Source: a virus (lineage: Duplodnaviria; Caudoviricetes). From it: 64,000 nucleotides of DNA. The notes below the pieces were generated by a model that searched no databases, was not told the origin of the DNA, and saw only the letters and a list, made by a program, of their open reading frames with translations. Made by a program: the position numbers and the translations under genes. Of the stretch, positions 1,294-4,508 are shown piece by piece. The stretch lies in the IMG/VR virus record IMGVR_UViG_3300014205_000014, positions 1-64,000 of that record, one strand, 5' to 3'. Within the stretch, counting starts at the first letter, position 1; every line of letters starts with the position of its first letter.

Positions 1294-1627
1294 ACTTATT
1301 AAATGGCTTAACAGTGATGATACGGGGGTGTCCTCTAAGGCTATTGTAGCCTATATGGAGGGCATTGAACCGGGGCGCTTTGGATACGACTACCCGCACG
1401 ATCCTTCTGATTTAGGGCGCTGTTTACGGTTGCTGGATATTATGCCGGAATATAAGGCACGGTTAAAACACATGAAACACTTATCACCTGTATGGCGTAA
1501 CCTTATTCAGAACTGGAACGAAATCAGCGCTTTGTACTACGAAGAATATCCAACTGGCAGAGCGCCTAAATGTTATGACCGGATGAAGGCATTAATCGAA
1601 GCAGGACGCAATGAGCAAGTTATCTAG
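1280..1627 (+). CDS. Phage hypothetical protein
   Basis: 115-aa ORF, SD GAGGGG upstream, overlaps neighbours; YPHDPSDLGRCLRLL motif. Confidence 0.75.
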   Translation: MAASELIKWLNSDDTGVSSKAIVAYMEGIEPGRFGYDYPHDPSDLGRCLRLLDIMPEYKARLKHMKHLSPVWRNLIQNWNEISALYYEEYPTGRAPKCYDRMKALIEAGRNEQVI

Positions 1628-1727
1628 CCACGCCCACAGTCACCCCGTAAGCCGCAACCCTCAACGGGGCGGTAGGGGGCGGGAAACGGTAAATATTAGG
1701 TCTTATCGGAAGGGAAGGAAATCACAA

Positions 1728-2237
1728 ATGAACACACATCGAGTAGAAATCACAGACGCTAATTTTGAGCCAGTCATTAAGTATTTGGCTGATGCAATCA
1801 AGTGGCTCGACAGTGACCAGCCAGAGAACGCGGTCATGAGCCATCATGGAATATACCTTGCAGCGCCGCATGATGAAAGTGTTCAACTTAGCATCAGTCT
1901 GACACCGGCGGGCGCTAGCGGGCGACCAGTATTAGTTTTTGGCAAGCCATACATTGAGGATAAATCATCCGTTACGGGCGCGGCGCAGGATTGTTTTACT
2001 ACTGATGAGATCGAAGTCATTCAACAGGGTATCGCCTCGGCGGGTGGTGAAATTCTTGACGCTTGGAACGGGGCAGGAATGTATTCAGCGTCATTTGCTT
2101 TGGCGCGATTTGCGGGTGACAAAGTTGCGACACTCGTTCGCAATTATTCCCGACACATGCACCAGTATGGTTTTTCTTGGCCTAACGAAGTTCAGGCTTT
2201 GTACGGCCTAGCTGTGAAGCCTGAATGCTGGCATTGA
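1728..2237 (+). CDS. Hypothetical protein (start moved to ATG 1728)
   Basis: SD GGAAGGA precedes ATG at 1728 within the 1611..2237 ORF. Confidence 0.7.
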   Translation: MNTHRVEITDANFEPVIKYLADAIKWLDSDQPENAVMSHHGIYLAAPHDESVQLSISLTPAGASGRPVLVFGKPYIEDKSSVTGAAQDCFTTDEIEVIQQGIASAGGEILDAWNGAGMYSASFALARFAGDKVATLVRNYSRHMHQYGFSWPNEVQALYGLAVKPECWH

Positions 2238-2271
2238 TTCGCATCACATAATAAAGACTCTCAGCAACAAA

Positions 2272-2292
2272 AACCCGGCACACCACCGGGTT
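2272..2292. terminator. Terminator-like hairpin AACCCGG-N7-CCGGGTT with A-run on the left (U-tail on - strand)
   Basis: Perfect 7-bp inverted repeat in intergenic space. Confidence 0.4.
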
Positions 2293-2315
2293 CATAGGCA
2301 AGAAAGGAGCAAGAT

Positions 2316-2873
2316 ATGATCTTCCGCCAATACGAGGCGATTATCCGCAAACTCAAGACTGAAACACGTAGGACTTCAGAGAAGGATACGTACAAAGTGA
2401 ACCATGAGTACAGCGTTGTGCCAAAACGAGCACAACCGACTGTTTACTACCAATGGTGTTCCGACTTCAGCGCATGGGGGTATGAAAGCATTGCCGTTAC
2501 TCCGCGCTTAGAAATTTGGCATGAACTGCACGGGGATCGGTTTAAAACGCCCAAGGTTGTTACCATGCCGCCATATTGGGCAGGATTGGAAAACTGGAAA
2601 CCCCTCAAGGTACTGATCCTTGAGAAACGATGGGAACACCTGCACGACATTGACGAAGCAGGGGCTATCGCGGAGGGGATTCAGGTTAGAGACAGTCTTG
2701 ATATTAACGGTCATCGTATCGAGGTGTTTTATCACGATCTTTCCCGCACAGTCTTTTTTAGTGCTGTAGAGGCTTACCAGAACCTTTGGGATTTGATAAA
2801 CAGTAAGTCCAAAATCTATAGATGGAGTGCGAACCCTTTGGTGTGTGTGCATAGGTTCGAGATAGTTGAATAA
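2316..2873 (+). CDS. ASCH/PUA-like domain protein
   Basis: N-terminal I..K.KTETRR and C-terminal W.ANP.V.V..FE, typical of phage ASCH proteins; SD AAGGAG. Confidence 0.7.
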   Translation: MIFRQYEAIIRKLKTETRRTSEKDTYKVNHEYSVVPKRAQPTVYYQWCSDFSAWGYESIAVTPRLEIWHELHGDRFKTPKVVTMPPYWAGLENWKPLKVLILEKRWEHLHDIDEAGAIAEGIQVRDSLDINGHRIEVFYHDLSRTVFFSAVEAYQNLWDLINSKSKIYRWSANPLVCVHRFEIVE

Positions 2874-2986
2874 CAGAATCGTATCTGTACTTTTAGGCTA
2901 TTTGAGCGTAAAATAGAGTATCAAAAGGTAGCGCCCACACTGCTTGTAACAGTTGGGCGCTTGAGTAGTCAAAGGAACTAACTACT

Positions 2987-3508
2987 ATGAACAATGATAC
3001 AGGATTCTTGCCGTCCCCGCCAGATAACACTATCATTATTCAGTTGACTAAAGGATACGCAACAATCGTTGATTACGCTGATTTAGACTTGCTGCGATGG
3101 AAATGGAAGGCTTCGGGGAAGTATGTTCGCGCAGCGCGAAATGTATCAATTAAGGGGAAGTGGCACACTATATTAATGCACAGGGCAATTGTTGAGCGTA
3201 TGATTGGCAGAACTCTTGATGGTTCAGAACATGTAGACCACATTGACGGGAATCCGCTTAATAATAGTCGATCAAACCTCCGCATAGTAACCAATACTCA
3301 AAATGCTTGGAATCAGCACGCTTCAAAGAGTAACACGAGTGGATACAAAGGGGTGTGCTGGCATAAACGTCAACAAAAATGGGTTGCACAAATTTGCGTA
3401 AATAGAAGGGTGATCCACCTTGGAACGTTTGAAACACCAGAACAAGGGCATAAAGCATATTGTGAAGCGGCTAAACAATATTTCGGTGAATACGCTAGAT
3501 ATAGCTAG
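2987..3508 (+). CDS. HNH endonuclease with C-terminal AP2 domain (free-standing homing endonuclease)
   Basis: VDHIDGNPLNNSRSNLR HNH motif; NTSGYKGV..WVAQI...HLGTF AP2 signature. Confidence 0.92.
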   Translation: MNNDTGFLPSPPDNTIIIQLTKGYATIVDYADLDLLRWKWKASGKYVRAARNVSIKGKWHTILMHRAIVERMIGRTLDGSEHVDHIDGNPLNNSRSNLRIVTNTQNAWNQHASKSNTSGYKGVCWHKRQQKWVAQICVNRRVIHLGTFETPEQGHKAYCEAAKQYFGEYARYS

Positions 3509-3509
3509 T

Positions 3510-3593
3510 AGCATCAACGGGAAGTCGAAGCAGTATTGTTGGGCAGCTAACCCGGCAGTGCAAGTCCATAAGTTTGAACTGGTCGAGGAGTAA
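3510..3593 (+). pseudogene. Orphan second copy of the ASCH gene 3' end (SINGKSKQYCWAANPAVQVHKFELVEE*)
   Basis: Aligns without gaps to LINSKSKIYRWSANPLVCVHRFEIVE* at the end of 2316..2873; no start codon. Confidence 0.8.
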
Positions 3594-3604
3594 AGGAGCA
3601 AATA

Positions 3605-3844
3605 ATGACGGAACCTCTTAATATCGTGAAGATTACAAGCCAGAAGGCAATTAGGGAAAACACCAACGCACAGGGGCTATTCATAACTGTCATTCAGTCA
3701 GAAGGTGTTGCTGATGACGGGAAATTCTACCGCTGGCTAAACGATCATTGGGGTGATGAACAAGGGTGGGTGCACGAAAGCGGTATGTACCTTGTTATTC
3801 CACTTGGTCGCACCCAAGTTGACACGCCAAACGAACACTGCTAG
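3605..3844 (+). CDS. Hypothetical protein
   Basis: 79-aa ORF with SD AAGGAG. Confidence 0.7.
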   Translation: MTEPLNIVKITSQKAIRENTNAQGLFITVIQSEGVADDGKFYRWLNDHWGDEQGWVHESGMYLVIPLGRTQVDTPNEHC

Positions 3845-3875
3845 ACTGTCTAGCAGGTAACGTGCCTCGGCACAC

Positions 3876-3905
3876 AAAGGGCGCTCATGATCGTGGGCGC
3901 TTTTT
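3876..3905. terminator. Probable bidirectional intrinsic terminator
   Basis: GCGCTCA/TGGGCGC stem flanked by AAAG and TTTTT between convergent genes. Confidence 0.55.
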
Positions 3906-3906
3906 G

Positions 3907-4476
3907 TTACCCCTCCCCCGTGCTGTCCTCAAGATACTTTGCGGCAGCATCATCTTCGCTGATGTCGTACTGCACCTGATCGGCCTGCTTGACGTAATCA
4001 CTTGCTCCATCGTCAGGCGCGGTGGCATTACTCAGCGCTGGTTGCAACACTTCTGACTTCAACATCTTATACGCCGCCATACGAGCGTAAACGTCTGTTT
4101 TGGGATCAAGCGCGGTTTTCAAGAACTCCCCCATGATTTGCGTGAAGTTATCTTGAACCCTATCCGCCATAACTTGCAACTGTTCCAACCGCAGTGGTTG
4201 TAACCATGCCCGTGCATCTGCCAAGGTCTGGTTTTTCGACCATTCGCGCCGTTTGGCTGTGAGCGTAGTTACGGTGATACCCATTGCCTGTGCGACTTGG
4301 GCGTTTACTTCACTCGTGCTGCGGGTTTCAAAGGCCGCGCCAAGACCGCCGTATTCTTCCACGAGTAGCAAATAGACAAGGGCCTGAGTCATCTCAGGGT
4401 TAGATTGGTACAGGGCATCCCACTCATCAGGGGCAATGTCAATTTTTGCAACGATTTGGGAAGGTATTTTGCTCAT
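3907..4476 (-). CDS. HTH protein; terminase small subunit-like or transcriptional repressor
   Basis: HTH-like QVAQAMGITVTTLTAKRREW followed by helical region and acidic tail; only - strand gene in the early arm, divergent from promoter at 4509. Confidence 0.55.
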   Translation of the reverse strand: MSKIPSQIVAKIDIAPDEWDALYQSNPEMTQALVYLLLVEEYGGLGAAFETRSTSEVNAQVAQAMGITVTTLTAKRREWSKNQTLADARAWLQPLRLEQLQVMADRVQDNFTQIMGEFLKTALDPKTDVYARMAAYKMLKSEVLQPALSNATAPDDGASDYVKQADQVQYDISEDDAAAKYLEDSTGEG

Positions 4477-4508
4477 ATTTGTCCTTTCTTTTTTACACGA
4501 AATTGTTG

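Follow-up and report, generated by a model that had tools for sequence, protein, structure and literature searches.

A free-standing HNH-AP2 endonuclease cassette has probably homed from a related phage into an ASCH-like gene of the phage described here, bringing with it a gene end that resembles the homologue P0008; we assign a probability of roughly 0.7 to this reading. The outcome is a hybrid gene: its 5' part is resident, its 3' end is foreign, and it is followed by the endonuclease gene and then by the last 27 resident codons as an untranslated stub. The window, i.e., the whole stretch of DNA that was analysed, comprises the first 64 kb of a viral record of 80,167 bp, which carries direct terminal repeats. 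The features of interest are arranged in the following order: a 185-codon gene with its own stop (2316-2873, + strand), a spacer of 113 nt, an HNH-AP2 ORF (2987-3508, +), a startless copy of the gene end (3510-3593, +), a gene of 79 codons (3605-3844, +) and a gene on the opposite strand (3907-4476, -). The stretch was present in only one public sequencing run, a landfill metagenome that probably represents the source sample; the contigs of this run contain one form only and neither a second nor an empty allele, although contigs cannot show rare alleles.

Upstream of the HNH gene, the ASCH-like gene terminates with ...LWDLINSKSKIYRWSANPLVCVHRFEIVE and a stop codon; downstream of it, the fragment 3510-3593 translates as SINGKSKQYCWAANPAVQVHKFELVEE, likewise up to a stop codon. 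The last 25 codons of the gene recur without gaps and in the same frame at 3513-3587, beginning 5 nt past the HNH stop, and the frame of the whole fragment is that of the gene (both starts are divisible by 3). Identical residues were found at 17 of the 25 positions (E 3e-12, BLASTP). When the flanks of the HNH gene were matched to each other by tblastx, an E value of 5e-9 was obtained, whereas none of the four other HNH genes of the window which were compared scored better than 0.015; a search of the phage's own genome also recovered the downstream fragment. The repeat of the gene end is not due to chance. The two ends are 61% identical in bases, with 29 of 75 bases different (7, 5 and 17 at the first, second and third codon positions, respectively) and a longest identical run of 5 nt. 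No plausible start was found for the fragment 3510-3593; the sole in-frame start is a TTG at 3420, within the HNH gene.

The original prediction, which was made by reading the sequence, had given the coordinates and sequences of both gene ends correctly, and its ungapped alignment was reproduced. Its statement that the fragment was diverged at synonymous sites needs correction, since 8 of 25 residues differ; the term "recoded" for the upstream C-terminus was for the same reason overstated, while the notion of a replacement end was upheld. To judge from these differences, the copies are homeologous ends rather than products of purely synonymous recoding. Recombination between the two ends had also been suggested; it appears unlikely, because of the 61% identity and the absence of any identical run longer than 5 nt. 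If anything, the divergence of the ends would stabilise the element instead of enabling recombination.

Pfam searches with the product of the gene 2316-2873 yielded no family at E values up to 0.1, and no match to PF04266 (ASCH). The protein matches phrog_874 (function unknown), and the sole match in a protein search of 50,697 phage records was to a remote protein of a Rhizobium phage, which is 35% identical and carries an ASCH annotation. An AlphaFold model of moderate confidence (pLDDT 78, from an alignment of 10 sequences) displayed a beta barrel of the ASCH/PUA-like fold. Foldseek returned nothing from the PDB at E 0.001 or better for this model; the fold was seen by an exhaustive aligner, which was run against about 48,000 solved chains. 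All of the six top-scoring structures were ASCH/PUA-like, with Z scores from 8.8 to 6.4 (YqfB, 8.8; PH0355, 8.3; the ASCH domain 3s9x, 7.5; EF3133, 7.1; PF0470, 6.8; 3iuw, 6.4), and the predicted product can therefore be regarded as ASCH-like by fold. The earlier label "ASCH gene" is thus appropriate as a statement of fold similarity, not as a Pfam call. In the model, the last beta strand of the barrel is made up of residues 175-183, which lie within the duplicated part, and removing this strand would probably break the fold. The upstream end continues the reading frame and makes the gene complete: the ORF 2316-2873 is continuous, aligns from end to end with nine homologues, including the C-terminus of the family, and supplies the last beta strand. 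As far as the model can be trusted, the foreign end retains this strand and leaves the gene whole without splicing.

The nine homologues were found in a collection of 5.8 billion proteins and were 48-70% identical to the ASCH-like protein. Contigs were fetched for seven of them, L005 being the locus of P0002 and L057 that of P0003. A single uninterrupted ASCH-like gene was present in every homologue contig read. No HNH gene adjoined the ASCH-like gene in the contigs which extend past its stop (L005, L006, L009, L010-L014, L058, L059 and the contig of P0006); L003, L004, L007, L008 and L057 stop 50-60 nt past the stop codon and are too short to contain a neighbour. A scan of IMG/VR with the family alignment yielded 42 distant loci, and among these neither a duplicated end nor an adjacent HNH-AP2 gene was found; the same scan with the single protein returned nothing. 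A comparison of the DNA of positions 1600-4500 with 50,697 phage records gave no match, and no second copy of the composite of foreign end, HNH gene and stub was present in any collection searched.

The gene order in the relatives is that of the window minus the HNH gene. A small gene follows directly after the ASCH-like gene, and it usually overlaps the stop codon by 4 nt (L009:5501-5504, L010:860-863, L058:2532-2535, L059:1381-1384), which suggests translational coupling. The position of this small gene corresponds to that of the 79-aa gene at 3605-3844. In the window, the sequence AAGGAG follows at the stop of the stub, with an ATG 11 nt later (3591-3607), and the downstream gene is now without a translated upstream partner. 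A reverse-strand gene of similar size (about 185 codons) is also found in L009 and L010-L013.

Flanking genes of the window recur in two relatives. L057 has the upstream gene in common with window positions 1728-2231 (67% aa identity), and L005 has the reverse-strand gene (62% aa identity to the gene 3907-4476, which thus serves as the right synteny anchor) as well as the unusual central segment of the ASCH-like gene; this hypervariable segment (codons 49-100) is shared with P0002 only, at 43 of 52 residues. Both L005 and L057 read ...LWDRINGKSKQFCWAANP..., and their gene ends (...LWDRINGKSKQFCWAANPNVQVHKFEL...) agree with the downstream fragment at 21 of 25 residues, versus 14 of 25 for the upstream end. 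The original prediction had proposed that an empty allele should carry the downstream version, and these flank-sharing relatives without HNH gene do so. The DNA of L005 matches window positions 2302-2680, then 3510-3582 and then 3888-4374. From this colinearity it follows that position 2787 is equivalent to 3510 within the gene, and that the insert has a length of 723 nt (2787-3509); it contains the foreign gene end, the leader of 113 nt and the HNH ORF.

In codon-aligned comparisons with P0002, base identity was 69-71% throughout codons 1-122, the resident 5' part of the gene (2316-2680, +); it fell to 50% for codons 123-160 and was 56% for codons 161-185, i.e., the upstream end, and it returned to 75% for the downstream stub (74.7%, a value not exclusive over these 25 codons, as P0005 gave the same 74.7%). 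Together with the uninterrupted relatives devoid of HNH, this drop and return of identity support the claim that the cassette brought a substitute 3' end (2787-2873, +, including the stop) and stranded the old one (27 codons and a stop at 3510-3593, +, with 75-78% of bases in common with the uninterrupted ends of L005 and L057). Codons 123-157 (2681-2786, +) possibly represent a co-converted donor tract. Position 2681 was considered as the left edge of the foreign tract and was rejected, since every comparison showed codons 123-160 to be hypervariable (41-50% between pairs); the edge lies between 2681 and 2787. The stub differs from P0002 at 19 bases, distributed as 2, 3 and 14 over the three codon positions, and has kept its reading frame open, from which it may be weakly inferred that it evolved as coding sequence for most of the divergence and was stranded comparatively recently.

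The family is mosaic even without an HNH gene, and ordinary phage recombination could have contributed. L005 (1170-1803) and L057 (599-1177) reach 99.4% identity across the 3' half of the gene plus about 50 nt beyond it, and 93% across its first 167 nt. No similarity between them was detected in the central segment (codons ~49-100), where L005 has the insertion of the window type; the segment is a swapped hypervariable module within the gene.

The upstream gene end, the IYRWSANPLVCVH version, is 56-65% base-identical to every member of the family, with 56% for P0002 and P0003. In residues it is closest to the P0008, P0005 and P0006 types (18-19 of 25), the best match being the P0008 type with 19 of 25. 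The foreign end comes closest to another branch of the family, that of P0008; this likeness rests on two characters, the residues and the position of a palindrome (see below). As no family end exceeds 65% in bases, the donor is not in the databases searched; the best homologue of the HNH protein there is 51% identical. A search with residues 120-185 only returned solely P0005, with 52% identity. In a search of 1.84 billion representatives, P0003 was the only one among the matches listed to go beyond E 1e-30, and the C-termini of the other 149 were left out of the comparison. In the ING motif of the upstream end a glycine codon (GGN) is changed to a serine codon (AGT); glycine is found at this position in nine of nine homologues and in the stub, and the exchange is a candidate immunity change.

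The ORF 2987-3508 (+) encodes a protein of 173 aa, with an HNH_3 domain (PF13392, E 2.6e-12, 46.6 bits at a cut-off of 24.8, covering profile positions 3-45 of 46) and, C-terminal to it, an AP2 domain (PF00847, residues 118-167, E 1.5e-12, 48.1 bits at a cut-off of 33.3). It matched phrog_99 with an E value of 2.5e-45 and is of full length against its homologues, the nearest of which is only 51% identical. The gene is intact and can be considered a putative free-standing homing endonuclease gene of the HNH-AP2 type. Seven HNH_3 ORFs above the Pfam cut-off were found in the 80-kb genome (at 2987, 7113, ~9538, 12405, ~46716, ~64900 on the minus strand, and ~73900); among the five within the window, duplicated flanks were present only at the gene 2987.

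The leader of the HNH-AP2 gene (2874-2986, +) contains a palindrome, a hairpin (2930-2961) and a Shine-Dalgarno sequence (AAGGA, 2972-2976). Its calculated RNA fold has an energy of -35.9 kcal/mol (z -2.3), and a scan for promoters and terminators in it gave nothing convincing. Over about 120 nt (2872-2991) this leader is homologous to that of a NUMOD4-HNH gene of the same genome (7070-7192). Two unrelated endonuclease genes thus have in common a palindrome, a hairpin, a Shine-Dalgarno sequence and a start of the form ACTACYATGAA; the shared leader therefore suggests that 7188, an in-frame ATG, is the true start of the NUMOD4-HNH gene instead of 7113. Because the leader is shared with another endonuclease gene, the mobile cassette proper would be leader plus ORF, and the upstream gene end would be donor flank which was carried along.

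The palindrome is 16 bp long (RCAKA-N6-TMTGY) and occurs in 18 copies in the window, all reported on the + strand, versus 0.72 expected; the sites include 2873, 4527, 6953, 10131, 13428, 30271 and 62028. Several copies are located directly before or after HNH genes. It was also found in contigs of the relatives (L009, L010-L014, L058 and L003), and on this account it looks like a putative group-wide operator. The copy at 2873-2888 (+) touches the stop codon of the ASCH-like gene. Among the relatives, a palindrome at the end of this gene occurs only in loci of the P0008 type; in L010, which is of this type, its offset to the ELV codons is within 1 nt of that in the window.

The proposed course of events is as follows. 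The cassette, consisting of the operator-like site, the hairpin leader and the ORF, would have resided first behind the ASCH-like gene of a related phage with a P0008-like end. During mixed infection, a gene without HNH would have received a cut or nick from the nuclease in its conserved ...LWD/xINGKSK... region. Repair would have been primed to the left of the break and would have copied the donor's gene end, stop codon, leader and HNH ORF; the right join could then have been non-homologous, linking the position 1 nt past the stop codon of the HNH gene to resident sequence of the recipient at the break. The stub and the downstream gene may serve as right-hand homology arm for further homing, and the 61% identity between the ends may protect the element against deletion. 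It is possible, yet rather doubtful, that the HNH cassettes of this phage group are standard portable units (leader with operator, hairpin and Shine-Dalgarno sequence, plus ORF) which pursue a general and active strategy of "end-replacement homing", entering coding sequences intron-free with a substitute end on board and the displaced end as right homology arm, and that the present case is not a one-off repair accident.

Several other explanations deserve consideration. The composite of foreign end, HNH gene and stub could predate this genome and could have entered ready-made by homing via its flanks, the stub then being a relic of an earlier host. The join exactly 1 nt past the HNH stop and the usefulness of the stub as a right homology arm lend the composite the look of a self-contained unit, and the identity of the stub to the relatives (75-78%) is no higher than would be expected for any member of the group. 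However, a second copy is absent from every collection searched, and the stub is about as similar to L005 as the flanking resident genes are (66-71%); moreover, the founding event would remain the one proposed above. An entry of this kind is considered unlikely. Alternatively, illegitimate or modular recombination might have imported a block with the 3' half of the gene and a passenger HNH gene, without involvement of the nuclease and with the stub as by-product of an imprecise join. The mosaic structure of the family in the absence of HNH genes, as exemplified by L005 and L057 (99.4% in the 3' half, 93% at the 5' end, an unrelated centre), would be in keeping with such an import, but the right join lies within 1 nt of the HNH stop codon and the break falls at the ING-KSK codons, where the DNA of the gene end is best conserved. 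Conserved DNA stretches are typical of homing targets. Free-standing endonucleases are, furthermore, known to drive co-conversion of flanks (PMC2988022), and a passive import appears quite improbable.

An in-situ tandem duplication of the gene end, with later divergence and landing of an HNH gene between the copies, would account for their common orientation and frame at a distance of 723 nt. The copies are only 61% alike, whereas the stub is 75% identical to genes of other phages; the copying event would thus have to be older than the separation from those phages, and yet no second copy exists in the relatives or in the 42 more distant loci. Relatives with two gene ends and no HNH gene between them were not seen, and a duplication on the spot is very improbable. 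Hardly credible is, finally, a location of the HNH gene in a self-splicing intron or an intein-like element, with the downstream fragment as true last exon. The fragment is indeed in the frame of the gene and of the type found in the nearest relatives, but the upstream frame runs through a complete end of the family type to its own stop, and no Rfam intron family was detected at E values up to 1 over positions 2000-4500, where the only match was one to "sar" on the minus strand at chance level. The non-coding part amounts to 113 nt only, which would be too little for a group I core; as for an intein, the HNH ORF is separate and out of frame with the host gene. A group I intron with homing endonuclease was accordingly rejected as a candidate, there being no Rfam core and the host frame being complete without splicing.

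If homing with a replacement end is accepted, a homing endonuclease can live in a phage coding sequence without intron, intein or splitting of the gene, by means of a substitute end. The footprint (2786/2787 and 3509/3510) narrows the likely predicted target to the conserved LWD/xINGKSK codons and thus provides a predicted substrate on which this uncharacterised HNH-AP2 enzyme could be assayed. As regards annotation, the startless fragment is explained, and the expressed gene would be a chimera of two phage lineages.

Free-standing endonucleases of T4-like phages (SegF, SegG, MobE and others) are known to home without introns and to co-convert flanking markers (PMC2988022, PMC2790892). The present case is similar in that a free-standing endonuclease gene lies beside its presumed target gene, donor flank was apparently transferred with it, and such genes are sporadic among related phages and numerous per genome (seven HNH_3 ORFs in this phage). 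T4-type endonuclease genes are found between genes, in introns or inteins, or splitting a gene into two expressed halves, e.g., mobE in nrdA of Aeh1, mobA in gene 60 and seg in gene 43 (PMC2988022). A duplicated gene end with a dead remnant is, in contrast, absent from the cases of that review (PMC2988022). The domain arrangement, with the HNH-type nuclease at the N-terminus and AP2 at the C-terminus, is that of known phage HNH-AP2 proteins, namely of Xanthomonas phages Xp10, OP1 and Xop411 (PMC2248197) and the "IPA-HNH" of ICP1 (PMC10448857), which likewise are present in several copies at variable positions across related phages (PMC2248197, PMC10448857). No conserved flanks were seen for the HNH-AP2 genes of the Xoo phages, and their authors proposed sequence-independent transfer (PMC2248197). 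Unlike the Xanthomonas and ICP1 copies, which are intergenic, the flanks in the window record a specific insertion point within a coding sequence. In the literature searched, the coverage of which was incomplete, no description of the end-replacement layout from a phage was found.

The closest likeness is to the mobile endonuclease ORFs (mORFs) of fungal mitochondria, where the gene receives an in-phase insertion made up of a foreign C-terminus and an endonuclease ORF, and its native C-terminus is retained further downstream (PMC3630166). Gene hybrids of this kind include atp6 of Allomyces macrogynus, atp6, atp9, cox2 and nad3 of Glomus sp., atp9 of Rhizopus oryzae and cox2 of Mortierella verticillata (PMC3630166 and references cited there). 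The phage locus has the same succession of gene body, in-phase foreign C-terminus, endonuclease ORF and native C-terminus downstream. The native remnant is in both systems the one nearer to the relatives (91-98% versus 64-81% in Glomus, PMC3630166; 75% versus 56% in the phage), and element-free relatives have an uninterrupted gene. The host is, however, a bacteriophage and not an organelle. Mitochondrial mORF endonucleases are generally of the LAGLIDADG or GIY-YIG types, whereas the phage nuclease combines HNH_3 and AP2. Unlike in Glomus, where the ORF is in phase with the gene in two of four cases, the phage ORF is a separate cistron with its own leader of operator, hairpin and Shine-Dalgarno sequence; also, the divergence from known relatives is much larger in the phage, so that the donor cannot be named. 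On the strength of these comparisons, the phage case would appear to be an extension of a known organelle mechanism to phages, rather than a new mechanism.
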